Origin: Actinomycetota bacterium
Lineage (GTDB): Bacteria; Actinomycetota; Acidimicrobiia; Acidimicrobiales; SZUA-35
Length of the DNA stretch: 64,000 bases
Direction: 5' to 3'
Assembly (NCBI GenBank): GCA_039029735.1
Contig: JBCCFL010000002.1
Location: forward strand, 196,521-260,520
Part shown: piece after piece, positions 21,021 to 41,481 of the stretch
How the letters are laid out: each line of letters opens with the position of its first letter
Numbering within the stretch: position 1 is the stretch's first letter
The notes under the pieces: model-generated
Seen by the model: only the letters and a program-made list of their open reading frames with translations
Told to the model about the DNA's origin: nothing
Database searches by the model: none
Position numbers and translations under genes: made by a program

Positions 21021-22396
21021 GATGGGTGACGATCGGCCTCGGCGTGTTGGCTGCCGCCGCAGTGGCCGGAGCAGCGGCCGTCGTGGTCGAGAACAGTCGG
21101 CTGCGCACCGGAGCATCCGTGGCCGAGTCGCGTTGGTTGGCGGCGGTGGCCATCAGCGGAGACCATTCGCCCTCCCAGAGCCGGCTGCTTGCGGTGGAGG
21201 CCGTGACCCGCAGCCCGACCGCGGAGTCCAGGGCGGCGCTCGGTCGGTTGTTGTACAGCGATCCCCGCACCCAGCCCCCAGTCACCGAACTCGGTCACGA
21301 TGGGCCGGTGTGGGCAACCGACGTGGCGACGACGGCCCCGTTCGTCGCGACCGGTTCGGACGATGGCGAGGTGCGTGTGTGGTCCAGCGCCGGGGAGCTG
21401 GGGTGGGCCGGCTCCACATCCGGCGAGATCCGCTCAGTCGACATCGCCGCCGACGACAGTCGGGTGGCAACCGGTTCCTTCGATGGCGATGTGGTGGTGT
21501 GGGGCCGCGATGGCGCGCAGCTCGCCGTGGTCGACCACGGCGCCGCGGTGAACGACGTTGCCCTCGGCGCCGACGGCACCCTCGTTCCCTCGGGAGGCGA
21601 CGATGGTCGGCTTCTTGTGATCGATGCCAGTGCCGACGTCGCCCGTATCAGGGCCGAGCTCTCACACCCCGACGCGGTGTGGACGGTTGCCCTTTCGGCC
21701 GACAGTGCCAGGGCCGCCACCGGCGGGCCCGACGGCGTGGCCCGGGTCTGGGAGCTCGGGTCCGGAACCGAGACCGCCACCTACGACATCGGGGAACCGG
21801 TGACTGTGGTGGCCTACGCCCCGTCGGGCGATTGGCTCTTCATCGGCGGGCAGCGAGGAGCGGCCGTCCTCGTCGACATCGCTGACGGTGGCGAGAGCGC
21901 ACCGTTGGAGGGAACCTTTCGCGGTGGCGTCGTCGACATCGACTGGCATCCCGACGGCAGCGAGGTGGCCGTGGTCTCGCTGGCGGGGGTGAATCGCTAC
22001 GAACTCGGCACGGCCGATCTCGTGGCCGAGCATCGTCTTGCCGGTGGAACCCGGGGCGTGGCCTACGGCCCCGCTGGCGACTGGCTCGTGTCCGGCTCGG
22101 GCGACTTCCAGTTCAGCTTCGGCGCCATCACGTTCTGGGACACCGCCGAGAACGTGGTGCTCGGAACCCTCAACCTGGGTGGCCCGGTGGAGACCATCGC
22201 CGTGGATGCGAGCGGTACGGTGCTCGCCGGGTTCCGAAGCACGGAGGATCTCGTGGAGACCGGTGGCGCGTGGTTGGTGCCTGGGCCGGGGGCCTGGCTC
22301 GATCTGGCGTGTGACGGTACCGACGGCGTGATCAGCGAGGAGACGTGGACCACGGTGACCGGCGAGACCGCCCCCCACACAACCGGCTGCGGCTAG
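21017..22396 (+). CDS. membrane-anchored WD40 beta-propeller protein
   Basis: There is an ATGA overlap at 21017-21020 and an N-terminal TM (VTIGLGVLAAAAVAGAAAVVV). The repeats are GSDDGEVRVWS, GSFDGDVVVWG, GGDDGRLLVID and GGPDGVARVWEL. Confidence 0.8.
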   Translation: MRWVTIGLGVLAAAAVAGAAAVVVENSRLRTGASVAESRWLAAVAISGDHSPSQSRLLAVEAVTRSPTAESRAALGRLLYSDPRTQPPVTELGHDGPVWATDVATTAPFVATGSDDGEVRVWSSAGELGWAGSTSGEIRSVDIAADDSRVATGSFDGDVVVWGRDGAQLAVVDHGAAVNDVALGADGTLVPSGGDDGRLLVIDASADVARIRAELSHPDAVWTVALSADSARAATGGPDGVARVWELGSGTETATYDIGEPVTVVAYAPSGDWLFIGGQRGAAVLVDIADGGESAPLEGTFRGGVVDIDWHPDGSEVAVVSLAGVNRYELGTADLVAEHRLAGGTRGVAYGPAGDWLVSGSGDFQFSFGAITFWDTAENVVLGTLNLGGPVETIAVDASGTVLAGFRSTEDLVETGGAWLVPGPGAWLDLACDGTDGVISEETWTTVTGETAPHTTGCG

Positions 22397-24324
22397 ACCA
22401 GGCTGGCGTCGGCCACGATGTCGACCAGGGCCGGACCGTCGTGGCCCAGGGCCGAGGCGAGGGCGGCGTCGAGCTGATCGGCCCGCTCCACACGGAAGCC
22501 CCGAGCGCCGCAGTTCTCGGCGAAGGCCGCGAAGTCAGGGTTCACCAGCGAGGTCTGCCACACGTCGAGATCGGCTGAGCGCTGCTCCTTCGAGATCTTG
22601 CCGAGCTCCCCGTTGTTCACGAGTACGTGGGTGACGTTCATGCCGTACTTCACGGCGGTGGTCACCTCCATCGCGTACTGCCCGAAGCCGCCGTCGCCCG
22701 ACACACCAACGACCTGGCGGCCGGTGTTCGCCGCCCACGCTCCCATCGCGGCCGGGAAGCCGAACCCGATGGAGCCGAGGTAGCCGGACATGAGCACAGT
22801 GTGGCGATCCACCTCGAAGTAACGCCCGAAGCTGTACGTGTTGTTGCCGACGTCGACGGCCATGATCGCATCAGGATCGACGGCAGTGCCGAGGGCGGCG
22901 AACACACGGGCGGAGTTGAGGCCGTGGCCCCGATCATCACCAAGGCGGGACGCCTTCTCGGCTCGCCAGATGGCCCACCGTTCAGCCACCTCGGACCGGA
23001 GGTCGGGCCGCTCGCTGTCCTCCAGCACGGCGTCGTGCAGCACGGTGGCGGTGGTGCCGACATGGCCGAGCACGGGCACCGTCACCGGATGGAATCGACC
23101 GAGCGCCATCGGATCGTGGTCGACCTGGATGATCGGTTTGTAGGGAGCGACGCCGGTGTGGTTCGAGAACGACACGCCGAACGCAAGGATCAGATCGCTC
23201 TCGTTCATGAACCAGCTGGCGATCGGCGTTCCACTGCGACCCAGCACCCCGCAGCCCAGCCGATGATGGTCACTGATCTGGCCCTTGGCCTTGAACGTCG
23301 TGGCAACGGGCGCATTGAGGTGCTCGGCGAGCGCCGTGATGGCCGCCATGTCGTGGCGGGCGCCAGCTCCAACGAGGATGAGGGGATGTGCCGAGTCGCG
23401 AATGAGGCGCACCGCGTCGTCCACGGCATCGGGCGGCGGAAGGATCGTGCGGAGCCCGGTCCGCCCGGCTGGGCTCGCCGCTTCGGCGTCGCTCGGTTGC
23501 ACCTGCACCTCGTCGGGCACCACGAGGTGGGCGACGTCGGCCTCCACCAGCGCCGTCTTGCACGCAAGCGTCATCAGCTCGGCGTGGTTGGAGCCACTGA
23601 GCACGGTCTGGCTGTACCGGGCCACGTCGGCGAAGGCGGCGGAGAGATCGAGATCCTGGAATGCGCCACGACCCATGGTGGCTGAGGGCACCTGGCCAGA
23701 GATCGCAAGCACCGGGGCGCGATCGATCTTGGCGTCGTAGAGCCCAGTGAGGAGGTTGGTCGATCCTGGGCCGGCGATACCAAAACAGGCGGCGGGCCGG
23801 CCGGTGAGCTTGCCGTAGGCCGAGGCGGCGAAGGCAGCTGCGCCCTCGTGACGAACACCGATGTAGGACAAGTGGCCGGCCGCCTCGGCTTCGCGCATCG
23901 CATCACCGAGGCCGAGGTTGGAGTGGCCGACGATTCCGAACACGGTGTTGACGCCCCACGAGGTCATGGTTCCGATCATCACGTCGGACACGGTTCGGGG
24001 CCGCGGCTCCTCGTCCGGCAGCGAGGCGTAGATCCCGTCGTCGCGTACCTCCACGTGGTAGCAGGGTGGGGCGTCGGTGAATGGCGGTGGGGGAGTGCCG
24101 GTGGTGGGGTTGTAGTCGTAGCCGTGCCAGGGGCAGCGCAGGTGGCCACCTTCGATGGAGCCCTCACCAAGCGGGCCACCCTGGTGCGGACAGTGATTGT
24201 CGAGGCAGCCGTACTGGCCGTTGTGATGGGTGACCGCCAGCGTGTGATGGCCGATCGTGACGGTGGTGACGCGGCCCTCCGGCAACTCTCCGTGATTCAG
24301 GATCTTGTGGAAGGTGTTGCGCAT
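22393..24324 (-). CDS. Rieske [2Fe-2S] domain fused to a TPP-dependent enzyme (pyruvate oxidase/acetolactate synthase-like), paralog 1
   Basis: The Rieske motif is CPHQGGPLGEGSIEGGHLRCPWH, the TPP_N motif is GIAGPGSTNL, and the TPP motif is GDGGFGQYAME..NNGELG. It spans 643 codons from ATG 24324 with GGGGGAG upstream. Confidence 0.85.
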   Translation of the reverse strand: MRNTFHKILNHGELPEGRVTTVTIGHHTLAVTHHNGQYGCLDNHCPHQGGPLGEGSIEGGHLRCPWHGYDYNPTTGTPPPPFTDAPPCYHVEVRDDGIYASLPDEEPRPRTVSDVMIGTMTSWGVNTVFGIVGHSNLGLGDAMREAEAAGHLSYIGVRHEGAAAFAASAYGKLTGRPAACFGIAGPGSTNLLTGLYDAKIDRAPVLAISGQVPSATMGRGAFQDLDLSAAFADVARYSQTVLSGSNHAELMTLACKTALVEADVAHLVVPDEVQVQPSDAEAASPAGRTGLRTILPPPDAVDDAVRLIRDSAHPLILVGAGARHDMAAITALAEHLNAPVATTFKAKGQISDHHRLGCGVLGRSGTPIASWFMNESDLILAFGVSFSNHTGVAPYKPIIQVDHDPMALGRFHPVTVPVLGHVGTTATVLHDAVLEDSERPDLRSEVAERWAIWRAEKASRLGDDRGHGLNSARVFAALGTAVDPDAIMAVDVGNNTYSFGRYFEVDRHTVLMSGYLGSIGFGFPAAMGAWAANTGRQVVGVSGDGGFGQYAMEVTTAVKYGMNVTHVLVNNGELGKISKEQRSADLDVWQTSLVNPDFAAFAENCGARGFRVERADQLDAALASALGHDGPALVDIVADASLV

Positions 24325-24524
24325 CAGGTGGCTCCCCCGTGGGTGATGCCGAGGAGGTGGTGCCCCCGTCAACGTCGATCGGCCTACCGGCTCGGTCGCG
24401 CGGCTGCCGCTTCAGCGACCAGCTTGGAATGAGCCCTGCGCCCCGTCGTGGTAGAAGCACGACGTTTCGAGGTCGAAACACGACAGATTGCGCCGGCCCC
24501 GGCTGAGGGGCCCCGACCCCGGCT

Positions 24525-30313: not shown

Positions 30314-32215
30314 TCACCGCAGGTAGAAACCGAGGTCTCCCTCGTCGTAGCTGGCAGCCGTCTTGGACGGCGTGTTGTGCCAGCCCTTCCAGTTGCCGCT
30401 GCCGTTGTCCGACATCACATGGCCTTCGGAGAAGGTGCTGCTGCGGTGCATGCCGTAGGTCTCGGAGCCGTCCCGCACGGGGTAGATGTTGAAGTTTCCG
30501 CCGCCCTCGGCGGTGAGCATCAGGTAGTAGGTGGTGCCGGCCTTCAACTGGGCTGACGACGACAGGCGGGCCGACGCCCAGCTCTGGCGATCCGATGCGA
30601 TCTGGTTGGCCGGGATCGACGCGGAGGCCACCTCGGTGCCTCGGGAGTCGACCACACGAAGCCGCAGGCTGCCGCTGCCGCTCACGCGGCGCACGTCTAT
30701 CCCGATCTCGTTGAAGGTCACGTTGCGGCGCGGCGTCATCGACTGCCGCACCCGATTCGATCCCGAGATCGGGCGGGGGTCGCGGACCCACACTTCCATG
30801 TAGCCGTTGCCGAAGGCCGACCCATCGGCCATCTCGATCGACAGAATTGGCGACTGGATGTTGTTGGGGTAGTCGCGGAAGGGGCGGTTGACCGTTTGGT
30901 CGGACCACGAGGACCCACTGCCCCTCAGCAGGCCCCACTCGCGGGTGGAGGGGCGGGTGGCCGCTGGGCTCGACGTGTCGTCCCAGATGCCCTGGACACC
31001 GACCCAGTTGGCGGTCGGGTTGGCGTCCACGTTCGAGAACACGGCGTGGTACACGCGACCGGCCTCGACCCGCACTGGTGAGTTGAGACGCATCGCCTGG
31101 AACGTGATCTGGCGTTTGCGTTCGGTGGTGGCGTTGGGGAGGCTTCCACCGGACAGCCCATAGGTGGCAGGAGACGACTGGCCGAGCACCCGGGACATGT
31201 CGGGCTGACCCGACCCGTTGTCGGCCACGATCTGCACGACGAGCTTGCCCCCGGTGCCGCTGGCGTAGCCGCCTCTGCTCTTGTTCACCGCAATGTAGGG
31301 CCGGACCGACACCATGTCGCCCGACCGTTGGGCGGAGAAGCGGAACGAGACCTTGTCGGTCTTGATCGTGTGGTTCTGCAAGGCTCGGGCCGACCAGGGG
31401 TTGCCGTAGGGCACGCCACTGCTGGCCTGCGGGGCGGGCGCTGGAGTGGGGGCCTTCGTGGTTGTCGGGGCCGTGGTGGTCGTCGGGGCCGTGGTCGTGG
31501 TCGGCGCGTTCGTGGTGGTGGGCGCCTTGGCCGTGGTGGGTGGAGCCGTGGTGGCGGAGGTGGCCTTCGTGGTCGGTGTTCCGGCCGTGGTGGGTGGAGC
31601 CGTCCGTGTGGCGGCGGCCTCGCTGTCGGTGGTGTCGCCGCCGGTGTCGGTGCGGTCGGTGTCGTCGGTGTCGGCGGCGTTGGGGTTGGACGTCGCCTTC
31701 GCTGGTGGCGACGTGGCCTCCTGCGGCGGGGTCGGCGCTGCGGCCGCCACCTGCTGTTCTGCCTCGGCATCGGAAGCCGGCGCAGGTGCGGTGTCGTCAG
31801 GGGCGGTGGCGGTGGGAGCGTCTGGGCTCGGCGGAGCCTCGCCAGCGGACGTGTCGTCGACGGCGGCACCCGCGGCCGACGTGTCGTCGGTGCCGTTCTC
31901 CGGAACCGGGATCCGCGACGAGGCCGTTCCGCCAGCGTTCGTCAACTCGTCGACGCCGTCGGGAGAGGGGGCGGACTGTGCGGCGGGTCGCGGCAGCGCC
32001 GGTACTGCGAGGTTGGCTGCGTCGGGAAGCTGCGAGCCGGTCTCGTCATCGATCGAGGTGGTGGGGCGGGCCGCGGTGGTTGTCGTGGCGGGAGGAGCTG
32101 TGTTCTCAGTCGCCAGTTCGACACCCCCGGAGAGGTCCGAACTGGAGCAGGCCGAGGCACCCACGGCCACGACAATGAGAATTTGAAGCGACCTCGATCG
32201 CCAGGACACAGTCAT
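30314..32215 (-). CDS. lipoprotein with a ~300-aa Pro/Thr/Ala/Asp-rich linker and a ~330-aa C-terminal region of unknown function
   Basis: ATG 32215 has a purine-rich RBS. The lipobox is VGASAC. I recognise no motif in the C-terminal part. Confidence 0.7.
   Translation of the reverse strand: MTVSWRSRSLQILIVVAVGASACSSSDLSGGVELATENTAPPATTTTAARPTTSIDDETGSQLPDAANLAVPALPRPAAQSAPSPDGVDELTNAGGTASSRIPVPENGTDDTSAAGAAVDDTSAGEAPPSPDAPTATAPDDTAPAPASDAEAEQQVAAAAPTPPQEATSPPAKATSNPNAADTDDTDRTDTGGDTTDSEAAATRTAPPTTAGTPTTKATSATTAPPTTAKAPTTTNAPTTTTAPTTTTAPTTTKAPTPAPAPQASSGVPYGNPWSARALQNHTIKTDKVSFRFSAQRSGDMVSVRPYIAVNKSRGGYASGTGGKLVVQIVADNGSGQPDMSRVLGQSSPATYGLSGGSLPNATTERKRQITFQAMRLNSPVRVEAGRVYHAVFSNVDANPTANWVGVQGIWDDTSSPAATRPSTREWGLLRGSGSSWSDQTVNRPFRDYPNNIQSPILSIEMADGSAFGNGYMEVWVRDPRPISGSNRVRQSMTPRRNVTFNEIGIDVRRVSGSGSLRLRVVDSRGTEVASASIPANQIASDRQSWASARLSSSAQLKAGTTYYLMLTAEGGGNFNIYPVRDGSETYGMHRSSTFSEGHVMSDNGSGNWKGWHNTPSKTAASYDEGDLGFYLR
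31430..31610 (-). repeat. coding tandem repeats for APTTT(T/K) units
   Basis: Repeated ggccgtggtggtcgtcgg-like units were read directly inside the lipoprotein linker. Confidence 0.7.
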
Positions 32216-32311
32216 CCTCGCCTTCCTCTGCCCCAGCGCAACGCCCGAGGGTAGCAGCGCGAGGTTGTCACACAACGGTAATGGCGGCCAGAACGGCATA
32301 TATCCTCATGG

Positions 32312-33423: not shown

Positions 33424-33609
33424 TCAGGGGTCCATCAGCGAGACGACCTCGCTGTAGGGATTGCTCGTCTCACTCCCGAAGATCGCGAGCGCCCCGACCG
33501 TGACGAGCACCATCAACGAGATCAAGAGCGCGTACTCCACCAGTGACGCCCCCCGCTCGTCGCCACCGTGCCGGTGTGCGTCGTGCTCGGCATCGTGGTC
33601 GTGGAGCAT
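33424..33609 (-). CDS. flp: Flp/Fap family type IVb prepilin
   Basis: GGAGG lies 5 nt before ATG 33609. The product is MLHDHDAEHDAHRHGGDERG|ASLVEYALLISLMVLVTVGALAIFG.., with the G|xxxxEY Flp motif over 61 aa. Confidence 0.8.
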   Translation of the reverse strand: MLHDHDAEHDAHRHGGDERGASLVEYALLISLMVLVTVGALAIFGSETSNPYSEVVSLMDP

Positions 33610-33747: not shown

Positions 33748-35439
33748 ATGGCACGTCCTGATCTGGTCATCCGCAATGGCACCGTGGTCGACGGAACCGG
33801 TGCTCCCGCTCGCCGAGCCGATGTCGCCGTCTCCGGCGACACGATCGTGGCCGTCGACGATCACTACGACGGCACCGGTACTCGTGAGATCGATGCGGAG
33901 GGTCGCATCGTCACTCCGGGTTTCGTCGACATCCACACCCACCTCGACGCTCAGGTGGCCTGGGACCCGCTGCCGACGTCGAGCTGCTGGCATGGCGTGA
34001 CCAGTGCGGTGCTCGGCAACTGCGGCGTGACCTTCGCCCCTGTGGCCGAAGGTGGCGCCGACTTCCTGGCCGAGATGATGGAAAGCGTCGAGGACATTCC
34101 TCGTCGGGCGATCCTCGAAGGCCTGCCGTGGGACTGGCGGACCTACGGCGAGTACCTCCAGTGGATCGACCGGCTCGACAAGGGCATCAACATCGGCGGG
34201 ATGGTTGGACATTGCGCCGTGCGGCTCGCCGCGATGGGCGAGCGGGGGATGGACGAGACGCCGTCGTCGGCGGAGGACATCGCCGCGATGTGCGAGCTGG
34301 TCGACGAGGCCATGGCGGCCGGTGCGCTTGGATTCTCCACGTCCAGAACGCTGCTCCACGTGGTGCCGGACGGTCGCCAGGTGCCGGGCACCTTCGCCGA
34401 CGAGGCTGAGCTCCTGGCCTTCGGCGACGTGCTCGGCCGTCACGGCAAGGGCGTGTTCGAAGCAGCCGCTCGCCTGGGTGAGCGCGACCGCGACGAGGCA
34501 CTGCCGAAGACGAGAGCCGAGGTGGCCTGGATGGGGGAGGTGTCGCGCCGCTCGGGGCGCCCGGTGAGTTTCGGGCTGGTCCATTCGAACCGACGGCCCG
34601 AGCTCTACCAGCGGGTTATCGAGTTCGCCAAGGAGGAGAACGCAACGGGCGCCACCGTGCGCCCCCAGACCACCTCGCGAGGCATCGGCGTGATCTACAC
34701 CCTCGCCAACCGACACCCGTGGTCGGGGTCAGAGGTGTGGCGCGAACTTCGCCCCATGACCCAGCCGGAGCGGCTCGCCGCCATGGCCGACCCCGACCGT
34801 CGATCCCGCCTCGTGGCCGAGGCCGCCGACATGCCCATGGACCCCAACCAGGTGTTCGTGCTCCCCGACGGGGACGCCAACTACGACTGCGATCCCGAGC
34901 ACTCGCTTGCCGCGGTGGCGGCAGCCCGTGGCGTGAGCCCCGTTGAGGCGTTCATCGATCTCAACCTCGAAACGGGCGGCACGGTCAACCTCAACCATCC
35001 GATCCTCAACCAGAGCAGCGATGCCGTGCAGGAGATGCTCGATGATCCCGTGGTCACGCTCGGCCTCGCCGATGCCGGTGCCCACGTGGGCCAGATCATG
35101 GACACGAGCCAGCCCACCTATTTCCTCTCCACCTGGGTGCGCGATCGCCAGCGGTGGCCGCTGGAGGAGGCAATCCGCAGGCTCACCTCCGACACGGCCG
35201 ACCTCTTCGGCGTGCAGAACCGGGGCCGCCTCGAATCCGGTCGGGTGGCCGACATCAACGTGATCGACCTCGACAACATGCGCCTTCCCCAGCCCGAGTT
35301 CGTGCACGACTTCCCGAACGGTGCCGGTCGCTACATCCAGCGCTCTGAGGGCTACGACTACACGATCGTGAACGGCGAGGTGTTCATGGATCATGGGGAG
35401 CACACCGGAGCCTTGGCCGGCCGTACGTTGCGAAGCTGA
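33748..35439 (+). CDS. N-acyl-D-amino-acid deacylase family amidohydrolase
   Basis: It has DLVIRNGTVVDGTG and PGFVDIHTHLD over ~560 aa. The start is ATG 33748. Confidence 0.8.
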   Translation: MARPDLVIRNGTVVDGTGAPARRADVAVSGDTIVAVDDHYDGTGTREIDAEGRIVTPGFVDIHTHLDAQVAWDPLPTSSCWHGVTSAVLGNCGVTFAPVAEGGADFLAEMMESVEDIPRRAILEGLPWDWRTYGEYLQWIDRLDKGINIGGMVGHCAVRLAAMGERGMDETPSSAEDIAAMCELVDEAMAAGALGFSTSRTLLHVVPDGRQVPGTFADEAELLAFGDVLGRHGKGVFEAAARLGERDRDEALPKTRAEVAWMGEVSRRSGRPVSFGLVHSNRRPELYQRVIEFAKEENATGATVRPQTTSRGIGVIYTLANRHPWSGSEVWRELRPMTQPERLAAMADPDRRSRLVAEAADMPMDPNQVFVLPDGDANYDCDPEHSLAAVAAARGVSPVEAFIDLNLETGGTVNLNHPILNQSSDAVQEMLDDPVVTLGLADAGAHVGQIMDTSQPTYFLSTWVRDRQRWPLEEAIRRLTSDTADLFGVQNRGRLESGRVADINVIDLDNMRLPQPEFVHDFPNGAGRYIQRSEGYDYTIVNGEVFMDHGEHTGALAGRTLRS

Positions 35440-35521
35440 CGCAACCGCCACCAGCGCTTTCGCCCTGCGTGCGCAAGGCCTATGCTTCGCGCCCTGCGCA
35501 CCAGGGAATACGGGGAGCGAC

Positions 35522-35947
35522 ATGAGCCGAAGTACCGAAGACAAGCAGACACGACTGGCCGCCGTGCCCCTCTTCGCTGGGGCCGATCGCAAGGCGATGC
35601 GGAACCTCGTCGAGGCCGTCGAGGAAGTCACCGTGAGCGGCGGTACCACCCTGATCAACCAAGGCGGGTTCCCGGCGGAATTCTCCGTGATCGTCACCGG
35701 ATCGGCCCGCGTTGAGGTCAATGGCACCGATGTGGCGACCCTCGGCCCCGACGACGTGATCGGCGAGCTCGCCTTCCTGGCCCGTACGGCTGCCTCGGCC
35801 ACCGTCACGGCCACCAGCGACTGCGAGCTGTTGGTGATTCGCTACGGCCGCCTCGAGAAGATCCTGGACGGCGACCCGGGCTTCGTCCGTCAGCTCACTG
35901 AGGCGCTCGCCCGCCGGCTCCTCGCGACCAACGAGATGCTCAGCTGA
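35522..35947 (+). CDS. stand-alone cyclic nucleotide-binding domain protein
   Basis: It has VPLFAGADRKAMRNL and GELAFLARTAASATVTA. It spans 141 codons with no output domain. GGGGAG is upstream. Confidence 0.75.
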   Translation: MSRSTEDKQTRLAAVPLFAGADRKAMRNLVEAVEEVTVSGGTTLINQGGFPAEFSVIVTGSARVEVNGTDVATLGPDDVIGELAFLARTAASATVTATSDCELLVIRYGRLEKILDGDPGFVRQLTEALARRLLATNEMLS

Positions 35948-36021: not shown

Positions 36022-37608
36022 ATGCGGGCCAACGATGATCAGCGCGCCGGCGGCTACGTGCTGCCGGCCACGGCGCTGCTCGTCGTGCCGCTCCTGGTGT
36101 TCGCGGCGCTTGCCGTGGACGTCGGCGGCTGGACCGTGGAGGCGAACCGCACGCAGGCGGCGGCCGATGCGGCGGCGCTCGCCGGTGCCCCCCTGCTGCC
36201 TGATCAGACCAAGGCCACCCAGGCGGCCCAGTACGTGGCGGCCCAGAACGGCTTCGTCGACGGGGCCGACGGCACCACCGTGGCGGTCGAGTTCCCCGGC
36301 AATCAGTCGATCCGGGTGGTGATCACCGTCGAGTCGGATCTGTACTACTCCGGGATCGTGATGGAGAACCCGGTCACGATCGGTCGCTTCGCCGAGGCCG
36401 AGGCCCTGTCGCCCATCGGGCTGAGCTCACCGACGAACGTGCTCGGCTTCGGCCCCTACTCGCTCGACGGCTCGCCGGTTGCCAACTACTGGATCCTGGA
36501 GAACAACGAATGCCAGGTCGGCCACTACGGCGACATCAAGGCCGCCCGCTACCTGTCGTCGCCCTGGTGTGGGGTTGGTCTCGGGCTGCCCGAGAATCCC
36601 GAGTTCAAAGGGCGCACCGATGGCCGCGACGGTGGCTACATGTATGTGGTCAAGATCCCGGCCGGTTTGACCGTCGGATCGAGGCTCTACATCTTCGATC
36701 CCGGCAAGTGCCCGGGCTATGGCTCGAAGCCCTCCGACGGGAGCTGGAACCGTCCCGACGGCCAGGGAACCAACCTCGAGTTCCGCCAGTGGAGCACCAA
36801 CGACTCGCCGCTGGTGCCAACCGACGACTTCCCGGTCACGGGCTGGATCCGCTACGACGACTGCGCCGAGGACCTGCCATACCCCGCCGCGTCGTGGACC
36901 GACCAGACCGACGGGTGGACCTCCACCGCCTTCACGTTCCCACCCAATACGTCAGGCGAGACCGAGTACCACCTCATCCAGACCCGAACCCTGCCGGCCA
37001 CCCGGTCGGGCTGGAACCACTACGCCTTTTGGGTGCGCCCCGACGATGGCACCACGTCATGCCTCACGATCGGGTCGACCACGTGTCCGTCCGTTGGAGC
37101 GGAGACCTGGGCCCCCACCCAGGCGCGGGGCGAGGTGGCCGGGGTGCCGATGGAGCTGTTCCTGGCCGAGGTCGGTCCTGAGCACGCCGGCCGGGTGATG
37201 ACGGTGCGGCTGTGGGATCCGGGTGAGGGCATGAACAACATCCAGGTGATCGACCCGCTCGACCGCTCGCTCGACTTCACCTGGACCTCCGACGACACCC
37301 TCAACTACGCCGGCACCAACCCGTCGGACACGTGCTCGGGCAACCCCTGCCTGTACCTGGATCCCACGTTCAGCGGATATCCGGCCAAGCTCAGCAATCC
37401 CGGGTGGGGAAACCACTGGCGGTTCAACGGCCGGGTGGTCAACCTGAACGTGCCCCTCGACAGTCAGGTCGACTTTCCCGCCTACGCCACCAGTCCCAAC
37501 GGATTCTGGTTCCGTATCCGCTTCGAGCCCACGCCCACCAACGCCGCGCGCGAGTGGGCGTCGTTCGGCGTCAGCATCGGCGGCGACCCGATCCGGCTCA
37601 CGGACTGA
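36022..37608 (+). CDS. TadG-like (Tad/PF13400-type N-terminus) pseudopilin with a large Cys-containing C-terminal domain
   Basis: GGYVLPATALLVVPLLVFAALAVDVGGWTVEANRTQAAADAAALAGA is the TadG-type N-terminal module. I recognise no vWA motif. Confidence 0.65.
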   Translation: MRANDDQRAGGYVLPATALLVVPLLVFAALAVDVGGWTVEANRTQAAADAAALAGAPLLPDQTKATQAAQYVAAQNGFVDGADGTTVAVEFPGNQSIRVVITVESDLYYSGIVMENPVTIGRFAEAEALSPIGLSSPTNVLGFGPYSLDGSPVANYWILENNECQVGHYGDIKAARYLSSPWCGVGLGLPENPEFKGRTDGRDGGYMYVVKIPAGLTVGSRLYIFDPGKCPGYGSKPSDGSWNRPDGQGTNLEFRQWSTNDSPLVPTDDFPVTGWIRYDDCAEDLPYPAASWTDQTDGWTSTAFTFPPNTSGETEYHLIQTRTLPATRSGWNHYAFWVRPDDGTTSCLTIGSTTCPSVGAETWAPTQARGEVAGVPMELFLAEVGPEHAGRVMTVRLWDPGEGMNNIQVIDPLDRSLDFTWTSDDTLNYAGTNPSDTCSGNPCLYLDPTFSGYPAKLSNPGWGNHWRFNGRVVNLNVPLDSQVDFPAYATSPNGFWFRIRFEPTPTNAAREWASFGVSIGGDPIRLTD

Positions 37609-37615
37609 CGTCGCC

Positions 37616-38281
37616 GTGTTCTTCGCGTTCCTCGTTCTCCGGCACCGCCGACTCGTTGCCTCCGAACGCGGCACGTCGTTGGTGACCTACTCCCTGGTGT
37701 TGGCCTTGGTCACCGTGTCGTCGCTGGGAGCTGTCGACGCGCTCCTTGCCTCGTCGAGCTCGCTGCTCGAGGACAGCGGCGACGACATAGGCACGCCCCG
37801 CTCGTACCGCAACGACGCGGTCCTCGAGGCGAACGCGCCACCGGCATGGGCGTCCACCACGTTGCCGCCGACGCTCGTGACGTTCGTCGAGAAGCCGATC
37901 CAAACGGCGGGAGGTTGCCTGGCGGTGAGTGGCACCACGATCGGTCAGGTGCCCTGTGGTGACCCGGCCGAGACGCTCTTCTCCGGGCTCAGCGAGGACG
38001 CCACCCTCATCACACTCAGCACGGCCGATGCCACCGTGTGCGTGCACGGCGACCCGGCTGGGGTACCCGACACGGTCACGATGATCCCGTGCACTGGCTT
38101 GCTTCCCGAATGGGAGCAGATCGCCGCTGAAGGCGTGGCCGTGATGTATCGCCACCAGGCGTCGGGCCTCTGCCTCACCGGCGTGGCCACCGGCGCACCG
38201 GTACCGCCACCAGCAGCCCTCGTACTCGCCACCTGCGACGAATCCCCGCAACAGGTCATGACCCTGGTGTACGGCGGATGA
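37616..38281 (+). CDS. Flp-type pilin N-terminus fused to a putative ricin-B-like beta-trefoil domain
   Basis: ..RLVASERG|TSLVTYSLVLALVTVSSLGAV aligns to the Flp at 33424-33609. The C-terminal ~130 aa has three Cys-pair subrepeats. Confidence 0.6.
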   Translation: MFFAFLVLRHRRLVASERGTSLVTYSLVLALVTVSSLGAVDALLASSSSLLEDSGDDIGTPRSYRNDAVLEANAPPAWASTTLPPTLVTFVEKPIQTAGGCLAVSGTTIGQVPCGDPAETLFSGLSEDATLITLSTADATVCVHGDPAGVPDTVTMIPCTGLLPEWEQIAAEGVAVMYRHQASGLCLTGVATGAPVPPPAALVLATCDESPQQVMTLVYGG

Positions 38282-38886
38282 GCCGGGCGAGGGGGCACCG
38301 CCGGAGTGAACGTGGTGCGAGCATGATCGAGACGGCTCTCGTCACCCCGATCTTCCTCGCCTTGGTGTTGATGATCATGGAGGTGGGATTCCGACTCCGC
38401 AACGACATCATCGCCGCCAACGCGTCGGCCGCTGCGATGCGGGCCCTCACCGTTGCCGGCAGTAGCCCCGAAGCCGACTACCTCGCGCTGCGAAGCCTGG
38501 AGCACGGCCTCTCGACGATCTCGCTCGAGGACGTGGAGCGGGTGGTGGTGTATCGGGCGTCCGGGCCCGGCGATCAGGTGCCGGCTGCCTGCCTGTCGGT
38601 GCCGATTCCAACCGGGCTCGACTGCAACGGGTACACCGCTCCCGACTTCTACCTCGCATACGCCAACGCCGTCGGCACGCCAACTGGTCACTGGGGTTGT
38701 GGCGTGACCGCCCGTGACGACCGTTGGTGCCCGACCACGCGCCAGTCGTCACTCTCCGACCCGGGTGGCCCCGATCACATCGGGATCTATGTGCGGCTGA
38801 GCCGAGGCACGCTCACCGGCGCCATCGGCGGGGCGCAGATCATCGAGGTCGACCGCATCGCCCGCATCGAACCGCAGAGCAACTGA
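38278..38886 (+). CDS. TadE-like pseudopilin
   Basis: The N-terminus is HRRSERG|ASMIETALVTPIFLALVLMIMEVG. There is an ATGA overlap with the upstream gene. Confidence 0.75.
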   Translation: MSRARGHRRSERGASMIETALVTPIFLALVLMIMEVGFRLRNDIIAANASAAAMRALTVAGSSPEADYLALRSLEHGLSTISLEDVERVVVYRASGPGDQVPAACLSVPIPTGLDCNGYTAPDFYLAYANAVGTPTGHWGCGVTARDDRWCPTTRQSSLSDPGGPDHIGIYVRLSRGTLTGAIGGAQIIEVDRIARIEPQSN

Positions 38887-39482
38887 TGGCGCCACCGCCG
38901 ACCATCGGAGCGCCGCGGGGTGCATGTACCGCCACGCGTCACGAGCGAGGGGCCGCGATCCTCGAACTCGCCTTCGTGTTCGTGCCGTTGATCCTGATCG
39001 CCGTGATCACAGTGGAGCTCGGGCTGATGTGGAAACAGCAGCTCGACGTCGACCAGTCGGCTCGGGCCGGCGCTCGGGCGGCGGCGGCGTTGACCAACGA
39101 CCCCGAGGCCGACCGTGAAGCACTGCGGTCCCTCGTGGGGTCGTTGTCGCCGGAGGCGCTGGCCAATGTCGATGCCGTGGTGATCTACCAGGCCCCGGCC
39201 TCGGGGGACATGCCCGGAATCTGCGCCATCTCCAGCACCTCGATGTGCAATCGGTACCCGGCATCAGTGCTGGCTGACCTCGACGACGACAGTCGTTGGG
39301 GGTGCGGGGGCGCGGCGCATGACCGGTTCTGGTGCCCCACCGCCCGTGACCCGCAGCTCCACGCGCCGGTCGAGGCCGGAGTTCGCATCGAGTTCCGGCA
39401 CGACTGGCGCCTCGGCATGTTCCCTGACGGCGTCGACCTGTCGGCGACGACAGTCATGCGCCTCGATCCGCTGATCCGCTGA
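38886..39482 (+). CDS. TadE-like pseudopilin (paralog)
   Basis: The N-terminus is TRHERG|AAILELAFVFVPLILIAVITVELG. There is a TGATG overlap with the upstream gene. Confidence 0.75.
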   Translation: MAPPPTIGAPRGACTATRHERGAAILELAFVFVPLILIAVITVELGLMWKQQLDVDQSARAGARAAAALTNDPEADREALRSLVGSLSPEALANVDAVVIYQAPASGDMPGICAISSTSMCNRYPASVLADLDDDSRWGCGGAAHDRFWCPTARDPQLHAPVEAGVRIEFRHDWRLGMFPDGVDLSATTVMRLDPLIR

Positions 39483-39549: not shown

Positions 39550-41481
39550 ATGACCTCCTGGCACAAGGTGCTCACCCCCGACGAGCTGCCCGAGGGCCGC
39601 GTCACCACGGTCACGATCGGCCGTCGCTCACTGGCTCTCACCCACTACGACGGCCGTTACGGCGCGCTCGACAACCGTTGCCCCCACCAGGGTGGTCCGC
39701 TCGGGGAGGGCTCCATCGAGAAGGGCTGGCTCCGGTGCCCCTGGCACGGGTACGACTACTCGCCCCACGACGGCCAGCCGCCGGCCGGCTTCTCCGATGC
39801 GCCGCCATGTTTCGCAGTCGAGGTTCGCGACGACGGTGTGTACGTGGAGCTGCCACCCGAGCCCGCGCAACCACGAACCGTCTCGGACGTGATGGTGGAG
39901 ACCATGATCAACTGGGGGGTCGACACCGTGTTCGGCATGGTGGGCCATTCCAACCTCGGTTTCGCCGACGCCATGCGCAAAGCCGAGGGTCGCGGTGACC
40001 TCCGCTACATCGGGATCCGCCACGAGGGTGCCGCTGCGTTCGCCGCCAGCGCCTACGGCAAGCTCACCGGCCGTCTTGCCGGCTGCTTCGGCATCGCGGG
40101 CCCGGGTTCGACCAATCTGCTCACGGGGCTCTACGACGCCAAGGTGGACCGCGCCCCCGTGCTCGCTCTGTCGGGCCAGGTGCCGTCGAAGGTCATCGGC
40201 CGGGGTGCCTTCCAGGACCTCGACCTCACCGGTGCGTTCGCCGACGTGGCCCGCTACTCCGAGACCATCCATTCCGGTTCCAACCACGCCGAACTGATGA
40301 CGCTCGCCTGCAAGACGGCGATCATCGAGCGCGATGTTGCCCACCTCGTGTTCCCCGACGAGGTGCAGGAGATCGCCTCCGACGCTGCTGCTGGTGGTCC
40401 GGTCGGCCGCACCGGCAACCGGGGGATCGCGCCGCCGGCCGAGGTGCTGGCCGCAGCCGCTGATCGCCTCGCCGCCGCCGAACGGCCACTGGTGATCGTG
40501 GGGGCCGGAGCCCGCCACGAGATGCCGGCCGTGCTGGCCCTGGCCGAGCAGATCGGAGCGCCGATCGCCACCACGTTCAAGGGCAAGGGGCTCGTGTCGG
40601 ATCGTCACCCGCTCGGCTGCGGTGTGCTCGGGCGTAGTGGCACCCCGATCGCCAGCTGGTTCATGAACGAGAGCGATCTGATCGTCACCTTCGGGGCGTC
40701 GTTCGCCAACCACACCGGCATTGCCGAGTACAAGCCGATCATTCAGATCGACGACGATCCGATGGCGCTCGGCCGCTTCCATTCGGTCGAGATCCCCGTT
40801 CAGGCGAACATCGCGGTGGCCGCCGCTGCGTTGGCCGACGCGGTGGCCGGACGTGCCACATGCATCGATCACCGGCCCGAAGTGGCCGAGCGGTGGGAGA
40901 TCTGGCGGGCGGAGAAGGCGTCTCGTCTGGCCGATGATCACGGCAAGGGCCTTGGTGCCGCCGCCCTGTTCGACTCGCTCACCCGGGTGTGTCCCGAGGA
41001 TGCCGTGCTGTGTGTGGACGTCGGCAACAACACCTACAGCTTCGGTCGATACTTCGAGGCCACCAATCAAGACGTGCTCATGTCGGGCTACCTCGGCTCG
41101 ATCGGCTTCGGCTTCCCTGCTGCGATGGGGGCGTGGGCCGCTGTTGGTGGCAGTCGCCCAGTGGTCAGTGTGTCGGGCGACGGTGGGTTCGGTCAGTACG
41201 CCATGGAGATCACCACTGCGGTGAAGTACGGGATGAACATCACCCACGTACTTATGAACAACGGCGAGTTGGGCAAGATCTCCAAGGAGCAGCGGAGCGC
41301 CGAGTTCGATGTGTGGCAGACGAGCCTGCACAACCCGTCGTTCGCGGCGTTCGCCGAGTTGAGCGGCGCACTCGGGATCCGAGTCACCGATGCATCGGAA
41401 CTCGACGAGGCGCTTGCCCGCGCCCTCGCCCATGACGGCCCTGCGCTCGTCGAGGTGATGACCGACGCCGCTCTCGTCTGA
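39550..41481 (+). CDS. Rieske [2Fe-2S] domain fused to a TPP-dependent enzyme, paralog 2
   Basis: It has CPHQGGPLGEGSIEKGWLRCPWH and GDGGFGQYAME..NNGELG. It has 643 codons and is colinear with paralog 1. Confidence 0.85.
   Translation: MTSWHKVLTPDELPEGRVTTVTIGRRSLALTHYDGRYGALDNRCPHQGGPLGEGSIEKGWLRCPWHGYDYSPHDGQPPAGFSDAPPCFAVEVRDDGVYVELPPEPAQPRTVSDVMVETMINWGVDTVFGMVGHSNLGFADAMRKAEGRGDLRYIGIRHEGAAAFAASAYGKLTGRLAGCFGIAGPGSTNLLTGLYDAKVDRAPVLALSGQVPSKVIGRGAFQDLDLTGAFADVARYSETIHSGSNHAELMTLACKTAIIERDVAHLVFPDEVQEIASDAAAGGPVGRTGNRGIAPPAEVLAAAADRLAAAERPLVIVGAGARHEMPAVLALAEQIGAPIATTFKGKGLVSDRHPLGCGVLGRSGTPIASWFMNESDLIVTFGASFANHTGIAEYKPIIQIDDDPMALGRFHSVEIPVQANIAVAAAALADAVAGRATCIDHRPEVAERWEIWRAEKASRLADDHGKGLGAAALFDSLTRVCPEDAVLCVDVGNNTYSFGRYFEATNQDVLMSGYLGSIGFGFPAAMGAWAAVGGSRPVVSVSGDGGFGQYAMEITTAVKYGMNITHVLMNNGELGKISKEQRSAEFDVWQTSLHNPSFAAFAELSGALGIRVTDASELDEALARALAHDGPALVEVMTDAALV

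Follow-up and report, generated by a model that had tools for sequence, protein, structure and literature searches.

The 64,000-nucleotide stretch of contig JBCCFL010000002.1 that we analysed (the window) encodes, at 37616-38281 on the plus strand, a 221-residue protein (hereafter the target, or X where gene orders are given) in which a Flp-type prepilin N-terminus is joined through a conserved extension to a C-terminal domain that family profiles and modelling assign to the ricin-type beta-trefoils. We hold with moderate confidence that the target is a modular Flp-type minor pilin of a type IVc (Tad) pilus, which would be loaded together with the TadG/TadE/TadF priming complex and would show its trefoil at or near the tip of the filament. 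The fold of the C-terminal domain does not bring with it the residues by which ricin-type lectins classically bind sugars.

The gene starts with GTG at 37616 and closes with a TGA ending at 38281, and its product is identical to NCBI entry MEM7337462.1, annotated as a "hypothetical protein" on a 261-kb contig of an Actinomycetota metagenome-assembled genome (MAG). A homologue with 71% identity (P0002) lies among the same neighbours on a metagenomic contig, L001, and all ratios of nonsynonymous to synonymous substitution rates (dN/dS) given here were obtained by the Nei-Gojobori method from the window locus and L001. The parts of the target are as follows.

37616..38281, plus strand: gene for a modular Flp-type prepilin of 221 residues
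37616..37672, plus strand: basic leader peptide (residues 1-19) ending in ERG with Gly at -1, the ERG being common to the prepilins of the window; dN/dS ~1.2
37673..37777, plus strand: mature alpha-1 helix (residues 20-54, TSLVTYSLVLALV...) with Thr at +5 and Tyr at +6, from the AlphaFold2 model; dN/dS 0.075; profile match to 8u1k and 8u2b
37778..37879, plus strand: extension or "linker" (residues 55-88, SGDDIGTPR...PPAWASTTLPP); dN/dS 0.08; motifs shared with relatives
37880..38272, plus strand: ricin-type beta-trefoil (residues 89-219) with three Cys pairs and degenerate QxW motifs, from profile, AlphaFold2, and Foldseek

The window has a GC content of 68%, and long open reading frames (ORFs) therefore commonly arise in it by chance. 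We rejected the target as such a chance frame because its third-position GC content (GC3), its homologues, and its synteny all mark it as a real gene. GC3 in the target frame was 0.83 over the full length, equal to that of the neighbouring genes, and a frame plot switched into the target frame at ~37600 and out of it at ~38260. Along the protein, dN/dS was about 1.2 for leader residues 2-16, 0.075 for residues 17-54, 0.08 for residues 55-88, and 0.24 for residues 89-219 (0.17 for the mature part as a whole). It follows that the hydrophobic segment at the N-terminus is translated and under strong constraint. An earlier, sequence-only reading of this DNA had allowed that the true start might lie downstream of that segment, leaving no pilin-type N-terminus; the drop from ~1.2 in the leader to 0.075 over residues 17-54 rules such a start codon out.

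Taken as a single sequence, the target matched no Pfam or NCBIfam family at E ≤ 1, phmmer found nothing for it in the PDB at E ≤ 10, and AlphaFold2 was uninformative (predicted local distance difference test, pLDDT, 41). A word-indexed protein search with the full-length query returned the target itself and the one 71%-identical homologue and nothing else, the same kind of search with an N-terminal profile returned only 17 proteins, mostly short, and a 5-sequence alignment used as query among GTDB genomes found two MAG loci only. HMMER, run exhaustively over 1.84 billion representatives, yielded 70 proteins at E ≤ 1e-3, some 20 of which were full-length relatives of 190-260 residues. One matching protein, P0034 (531 residues), consists of seven tandem ~70-residue units rich in Cys, Tyr, and Leu, to which a 22-residue stretch of the profile matched seven times (E 1.2e-6); by its sequence, this looks like a repeat-driven false positive. 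Four others (P0003, P0009, P0010, and P0025) have predicted starts within the hydrophobic helix (e.g., MLVALFT...) and thus lack a leader and the RG motif; their start codons were probably mis-called in the source annotations.

The N-terminus of the target is a genuine Flp-type prepilin N-terminus. It reads MFFAFLVLRHRRLVASERG/TSLVTYSLVLALVTVSSLGAV (the slash marks the cleavage site), with ...VASERG as the preceding residues, and the cleavage region ERG/TSLVTY places Gly19 at -1, Thr at +5, and Tyr at +6. The natural partner for comparison within the window is a short pilin encoded at some distance from the target:

33424..33609, minus strand: 61-residue Flp pilin (ERG/ASLVEY), presumed major subunit; Pfam Flp_Fap E 7.5e-4, under the curated cut-off; NCBI name "Flp family type IVb pilin"

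Against this pilin (GDERG/ASLVEYALLISLMVLVTVGAL), the target showed 38% identity over 39 residues (pairwise BLASTP E 3e-7) in a stretch that spans both the cleavage site and the hydrophobic helix. Together with the predicted helix, this match bears out the Flp-type N-terminus that the sequence-only reading had proposed. All four prepilin-like genes of the window (Flp, target, and two TadE) carry ERG at -3 to -1, which suggests that one prepilin peptidase may process all of them, and R-G is invariant in 27 N-termini of the family. Given the family alignment, AlphaFold2 predicts a single 34-residue helix (residues 21-54), over which family profiles matched the solved Tad pilins 8u1k (Caulobacter PilA) and 8u2b (Flp pilin), although weakly (E 0.003-0.05). 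Among 24 relatives, 5 matched Pfam Flp_Fap at E ≤ 0.01 and none matched TadE, and the Joint Genome Institute (JGI) uses the name Flp pilin for short proteins related to the N-terminal module. Of the marks of the Flp family, the target has the class III signal peptide, its Gly at -1, and, after it, the hydrophobic helix of ~20 residues; of the Flp Glu5-Tyr6 motif it keeps Tyr6 and replaces Glu5 with Thr, a substitution that had been read correctly from the sequence and that P0002 shares. It departs from the family in two respects: The target was not matched by Flp_Fap (PF04964) at the curated threshold, nor even at E ≤ 1, and instead of the single helix of 40-60 residues typical of mature Flp pilins it has a mature form of ~202 residues with a globular domain.

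The assignment of this C-terminal domain to the ricin-type beta-trefoils is sound, as a prediction from sequence and model, because profile matches, AlphaFold2, and Foldseek agree on it. A profile built from the 14 closest relatives, with no obviously canonical lectin among them, matched the CBM13 domain 1knl (E 2e-7), CEL-III (E 3e-6), and the ricin B chain (E 3e-5). With the alignment of 24 sequences as input, AlphaFold2 gave a model of 12 strands with a mean pLDDT of 83, rising above 90 over residues 90-218. A Foldseek search of the PDB with the predicted structure, the check that the sequence-only reading had suggested for its trefoil, ranked nothing but beta-trefoils among its top matches (E as low as 3.8e-5; target template modelling score, TM-score, 0.75-0.79), among them Symfoil, Mitsuba, ThreeFoil, ricin-B-like lectins, and CBM13-bearing enzymes. 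Individually, 13 of the 24 relatives matched Ricin_B_lectin (PF00652); the target alone did not.

Each lobe of the trefoil carries one Cys pair (C101/C114, C142/C159, and C186/C207), as had been noticed from the sequence, and these six Cys are the sole invariant columns of the 24-sequence family alignment. The three subrepeats of ~40 residues in which the pairs had been placed stand only in part. Within the single sequence, their mutual similarity was indistinguishable from chance (local alignment z ≤ 1.4 versus shuffles), so that we take no evidence from similarity among the repeats; it is the profile of the family, the structural model, and the Foldseek matches that establish three lobes. 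The QxW motifs survive as degenerate remnants, TLF in the alpha, PEW in the beta, and Q-V-M in the gamma subdomain. Both of the QxW-like positions pointed out earlier are meaningful: EWEQ holds W166 of the beta-subdomain QxW, which is invariant in the close clade, and QQV falls at the gamma QxW position, where Q213 is nearly invariant. The clade also has invariant residues of its own away from the structural core: an "LSEDG" turn contributes S126 and D128, and the third is Y178.

In a functional lobe of ricin B or CBM13, the second residue past the first Cys is an Asp (C-L-D), the second residue ahead of the second Cys is aromatic, and the QxW motif carries Asn-Gln, a rule with which the alignment to 1knl agrees. 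At these positions, the target and a remote, stand-alone relative compare as follows.

Target, alpha/beta/gamma: CLA/CVH/CLT after the first Cys; VPC/IPC/ATC before the second Cys; Asn at NQ in none
P0026, beta/gamma: CVD/CID after the first Cys; QWTC/QWSC before the second Cys; NQ present

Read from the alignment, the target has thus exchanged Asp for Ala, His, and Thr, the aromatic residue for Val, Ile, and Ala, and Asn for Glu, Leu, and Gln in its alpha, beta, and gamma lobes, respectively. The canonical sugar-site residues are missing in the alignment from all three lobes of the target and from nearly all members of the close clade. Canonical sugar binding by the target is, on this comparison, not supported, and carbohydrate binding through classical sites appears unlikely. 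The name lectin that the sequence-only reading had given to the domain is weakened by the absence of the Asp, aromatic, and Asn residues from all three subdomains, and this loss is a warning against naming such proteins lectins on fold alone. Two remote family members, P0026 and P0019, have more canonical trefoils and are encoded by stand-alone genes at L002 2049-2768 and L008 97-798, one after folC and the other before ndk; no pilus genes were seen on these short contigs, and the ricin sugar sites of P0026 are intact.

The target is encoded among genes for Tad minor pilins. Its gene is the second in a compact cassette with the following other members.

36022..37608, plus strand: TadG-like minor pilin, 528 residues; Pfam Tad PF13400 E 5.6e-11; NCBI name "pilus assembly protein TadG-related"
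38278..38886, plus strand: TadE-like pseudopilin 1 (TadE1), 202 residues, ERG/ASMIE; Pfam TadE PF07811 E 3.4e-8
38886..39482, plus strand: TadE-like pseudopilin 2 (TadE2), 198 residues from the ATG at 38886, ERG/AAILE; PF07811 E 2.1e-8 on a longer ORF

A gap of 7 nt separates the TadG-like gene from that of the target, which overlaps the TadE1 gene by ATGA, and TadE1 in turn overlaps TadE2 by TGATG. The target is hence encoded in one cluster with tadE/tadF/tadG homologues, the arrangement of Tad tip and priming proteins (PMC12075869). The Flp gene is found on the opposite strand at a distance of 4 kb upstream, separated from the cassette by a putative amidohydrolase-like ORF and a protein that binds cyclic nucleoside monophosphates (cNMP). 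The cassette recurs in four further metagenomic loci. In L001 and L004, Pfam matches recover the full order TadG-like / X / TadE (/ TadE), and the short contigs L006 and L007 have X followed by TadE genes. In addition, L009 has a 528-residue ORF immediately before its X homologue, and L005 has genes of the same sizes, with neighbours that are without domain calls. TadE1 is kept as the downstream neighbour in L001, L004, L006, and L007.

Using these data, we propose the following course for the target. The prepilin would enter the membrane by its class III signal peptide and be cleaved after Gly19 by a TadV-type prepilin peptidase, upon which the 34-residue alpha-1 helix with Tyr6 would pack among the core helices of a Tad filament made of the 61-residue Flp. 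The IGxPR/PPxW extension would then lead to a disulfide-stabilised beta-trefoil outside the filament. The tight packing with the tadG-like and tadE genes points to low amounts and to loading with the priming complex: Probably co-translated with the tadG-like, tadE, and tadE/F-like genes, the target would be made at a low level and loaded with the complex that ends up at the tip, where its likeliest place would be just beneath or beside the TadG/TadE/TadF cap. There, the trefoil would serve as a binding module, which may bind by a surface other than the canonical one or attach to a second protein of the tip. In this scheme, membrane entry, cleavage, and the course from extension to trefoil are drawn from features of the sequence, whereas the packing, the loading, and the binding role are inferred.

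The rates of change within the cassette fit such an exposed, ligand-facing module. Between the window and L001, dN/dS was 0.10 for the TadG-like protein (88% identity), 0.07 for TadE1 (85% identity), and 0.08 for the pilin module of the target, compared with 0.24 for its trefoil (69% identity). In this one genome pair, the trefoil is accordingly the fastest-changing part of the cassette, by a factor of about 2.5-3 over the pilin module, the TadG-like protein, and TadE1 (0.24 versus 0.07-0.10).

Several points weigh against our proposal. The trefoil, cast here as a binding module, lacks the canonical sugar-binding residues. By itself, the target matches neither Flp_Fap nor Ricin_B. Pfam scans of most long ORFs of coding-like composition in the 64-kb window found no tadA, tadB, tadC, tadZ, or tadV, and only metabolic, transport, and regulatory genes, so that a working Tad machine elsewhere in the genome has to be assumed. 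The rate comparison draws on a single pair of genomes, and we infer the processing, assembly, and location of the target throughout.

A different and, in our estimate, unlikely reading makes the target the capping subunit of the pilus and a carbohydrate-binding tip adhesin, in which the loss of Glu5 would mark the first-assembled subunit and the trefoil would bind a glycan. Type IV filaments generally have a tip complex capped by a subunit that lacks Glu5 (PMC10191384), Thr at +5 is kept in both close homologues, the fold is ricin-type, a pilin with a lectin module has been demonstrated by experiment in Streptococcus sanguinis PilC (PMC9934059), and the remote family member P0026 retains its sugar sites. 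Yet in the target and its clade each of the three canonical sugar sites has degenerated, and the argument from Glu5 falls short of identifying a cap. Among 63 N-termini of the family, the +5 residue is Glu in 41, Gly in 17, Ser in 3, and Thr in 2, and within the cassette slot it is Glu in P0005 and P0008, Gly in P0017, and Thr in the target and P0002. In the Caulobacter Tad pilus structure, Glu5 is reported to face the pilus surface and Tyr6 to hold the helical register; of the conserved N-terminal polar residues, only Thr2 makes subunit contacts, and Glu5 is not reported to form the usual salt bridge between subunits (PMC10710030). The N-terminus of the neighbouring TadG-like protein also has no recognisable Glu5 motif, and in published models of Tad tips TadG occupies the very end, while KilK or KilO, each a small "adapter" pilin of Flp type, joins tip and shaft, KilO being encoded in a tip cluster (PMC12075869). 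The target sits in the corresponding slot, that of a Flp-type pilin within a tip cluster. The loss of Glu5 is compatible with a tip-proximal place and is no proof of a cap. The sequence-only reading had drawn tip location from this loss, a step that we do not follow, given the Glu5 of P0005 and P0008, its surface-facing orientation, and the equal lack of it in the TadG-like protein. The target is probably associated with the pilus tip, and its TadG-like neighbour is the likelier cap.

We give still less weight to a second alternative, in which the target would be a non-core minor pilin scattered along the shaft so that its trefoils decorate the whole Tad pilus. The retained Tyr6 and Flp-like helix would allow it, the ~35-residue extension could seat a bulky domain beside the thin Tad filament, and modular pilins may, if their linker is flexible, also sit in the shaft (PMC8179133). 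This improbable arrangement conflicts with the tight linkage to tadG, tadE, and tadE that is kept across loci, a pattern of priming and tip proteins and not of accessory pilins.

It is very improbable that the target stays outside filaments altogether, as a secreted trefoil protein or with its class III signal peptide serving only for export and anchoring, as it does in the sugar-binding proteins that make up the bindosome of the archaeon Sulfolobus: No Tad machinery was seen in the window, P0026 and P0019 stand alone beside folC or ndk on short contigs without visible pilus genes, and the N-terminal module is common to many different C-terminal modules, but the clade of the target always lies among pseudopilin genes, and purifying selection on its alpha-1 helix and extension equals that on the TadE- and TadG-like proteins and exceeds what a simple anchor would need.

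Returning to the target as a modular minor pilin, we found that the region between helix and trefoil ties it to a wider family. The extension, about 35 residues long and modelled with low to moderate confidence (pLDDT 62-74), contains a nearly invariant R62 in the 24-sequence alignment and shares its IGxPR and PPxW motifs with stand-alone Flp-like proteins of 60-100 residues. With a dN/dS of 0.08 it is as constrained as the helix, which argues that it is more than a spacer. The full (S/T)GxxIGxPR...PPxW extension, present also in relatives P0027-P0071, is absent from the window's own 61-residue Flp. Helix and (S/T)GxxIGxPR, often with PPxW, make up an N-terminal module of ~70 residues that occurs either in those stand-alone Flp-like proteins or fused to varied C-terminal modules: to a ricin trefoil (P0026 and P0048 by Pfam, others by sequence pattern), to pentapeptide repeats (P0054, E 3e-17), to DUF642 (P0024) or Big_1 (P0059) with weak matches, and to several C-terminal domains without a Pfam match. 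A subgroup of the family (17 of 63 members) has Gly at +5 in an N-terminus of the form (Q/E)RG(A/S)(T/S)xxGY and bears many different C-terminal modules (P0016, P0017, P0020, P0030, P0031, P0036-38, P0046, P0048, P0050, P0053-56, P0060, and P0071).

These observations lead us to a tentative proposal, to which we give slightly less than an even chance: Uncultured Actinomycetota would possess a family of modular Flp-type pilins built on one module, an RG/xxxx(E/G/S/T)Y helix with the IGxPR/PPxW extension, that also exists as a pilin by itself and has time and again been joined to exchangeable C-terminal modules, perhaps with DUF642-like or Ig-like domains among them. The trefoil of the cassette clade would have lost its sugar sites and gained the invariant S126, D128, and Y178, which would mean a new ligand or a structural role in the Tad tip. 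If this is true, Tad pili gain specificity through Flp-type subunits in addition to TadG.

The surroundings of the cassette offered some further observations. The C-terminal ~470 residues of the TadG-like protein are rich in Trp and Cys and had no Pfam or PDB sequence match (phmmer against the PDB gave nothing meaningful); this part is the likelier distal tip domain. Directly upstream of the cassette, 35393-35947 (plus strand) encodes the cNMP-binding protein, which consists of that domain only and could be a regulator; it is not kept at the equivalent position of L004, whose cassette has a VIT1 gene in front of it. At 30314-32299 (minus strand), some 1 kb away from the region of the Flp gene, lies the gene for a 661-residue protein with a long low-complexity region rich in Thr, Pro, and Ala and a weak C-terminal DUF4082 match, which may be a surface protein. 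At 22393-24411 (minus strand), an N-terminal Rieske [2Fe-2S] domain is joined to a full thiamine-pyrophosphate enzyme (acetolactate-synthase-like), and the gene directly 3' of the pilin cassette (39550-41481, plus strand) has, by eye, a Rieske-like CPH...CPWH N-terminus, so that an unusual Rieske fusion looks to be present twice in the window.

Modular pilins, Tad tips, and ricin trefoils are each known; a type IVc pilin that combines them did not turn up in the open-access literature, where a search for a Flp or Tad pilin fused to a ricin or beta-trefoil domain gave nothing relevant. There is precedent both for modular pilins that show adhesive modules at the tip (PMC8179133, PMC9934059) and for Tad tips composed of TadE/F/G and a Flp-type adapter pilin from the tip cluster (PMC12075869). 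In joining a pilin module to a domain with no particular tie to pili, here a Flp-type module to a ricin-type trefoil, the target is a modular pilin in the sense of PMC8179133. The published survey of such proteins relied on IPR012902, the N-methylation signature of type IVa and IVb (T4a/T4b) pilins, and its text mentions neither Flp nor Tad (PMC8179133). The N-terminal motif of the target is Flp-type (G/xxxxTY), and proteins of its kind probably escaped the IPR012902-based survey.

The closest parallel in architecture is provided by S. sanguinis PilC and PilB, which likewise graft a non-pilus domain (a lectin in PilC and a von Willebrand factor A, vWA, domain in PilB) onto an N-terminal pilin module, come from a monoderm host, are encoded with other minor pilins, and are modelled in the tip complex (PMC9934059, PMC8179133). 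Unlike them, with their globular T4a module and IPR012902 N-methylation motif, the target has a Flp-type helix prolonged by a short extension and belongs to a Tad (T4c) context, and whereas the module of PilC is concanavalin-A-like and binds glycans by experiment, the trefoil of the target lacks canonical sites. CofB of enterotoxigenic Escherichia coli (ETEC) and TcpB of Vibrio cholerae are also single large minor pilins, whose beta-rich C-terminal domains hang on a flexible linker, and they initiate assembly and are located at the tip (PMC8179133, PMC10710030); unlike the target, they are T4b proteins with a full globular pilin domain, other C-terminal folds, and no TadE/F/G set. With the ricin B chain and CBM13 (PF00652; Streptomyces lividans Xyn10A CBM13, 1knl), the target shares three lobes with a Cys pair each, QxW remnants, and profile homology (E 2e-7), but it has replaced the sugar sites in all lobes, falls as a single sequence under the detection limit of Pfam, and is attached to a pilin and not to an enzyme or toxin.

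With regard to the filament itself, the target resembles Flp/Fap pilins (PF04964; Caulobacter PilA 8u1k, PMC10710030) in the Gly at the end of the leader, Tyr at +6, the hydrophobic helix, and the link to tadE and tadG genes, and differs from these subunits of 40-60 mature residues in its ~202 residues, its Thr at +5, the IGxPR/PPxW extension, and the globular domain. Its position resembles that of Myxococcus xanthus KilK and KilO, which act with KilL/M/N (TadE/F/G) in tips: In both cases a Flp-like minor pilin is encoded inside a tadE/tadF/tadG-type cluster, apart from the major Flp, and a large subunit with its own C-terminal domain (KilN or the window TadG-like protein) accompanies it (PMC12075869). 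KilO, in contrast to the target, is an all-helical protein of 59 residues without an extra domain, Myxococcus is a diderm predator, and the variable exposed module resides there on TadG/KilN, whereas here it resides on a Flp-type pilin. Flp pilins have been treated as minimal single-helix subunits of 40-60 residues, and the specificity of Tad pili is currently credited to tip proteins of the TadG type. A conserved Flp-type subunit under selection that carries a folded trefoil means that domain grafting reaches type IVc pili as well, and the target and its sister proteins form a defined candidate set for asking how environmental actinobacteria steer their Tad pili to surfaces or partners.

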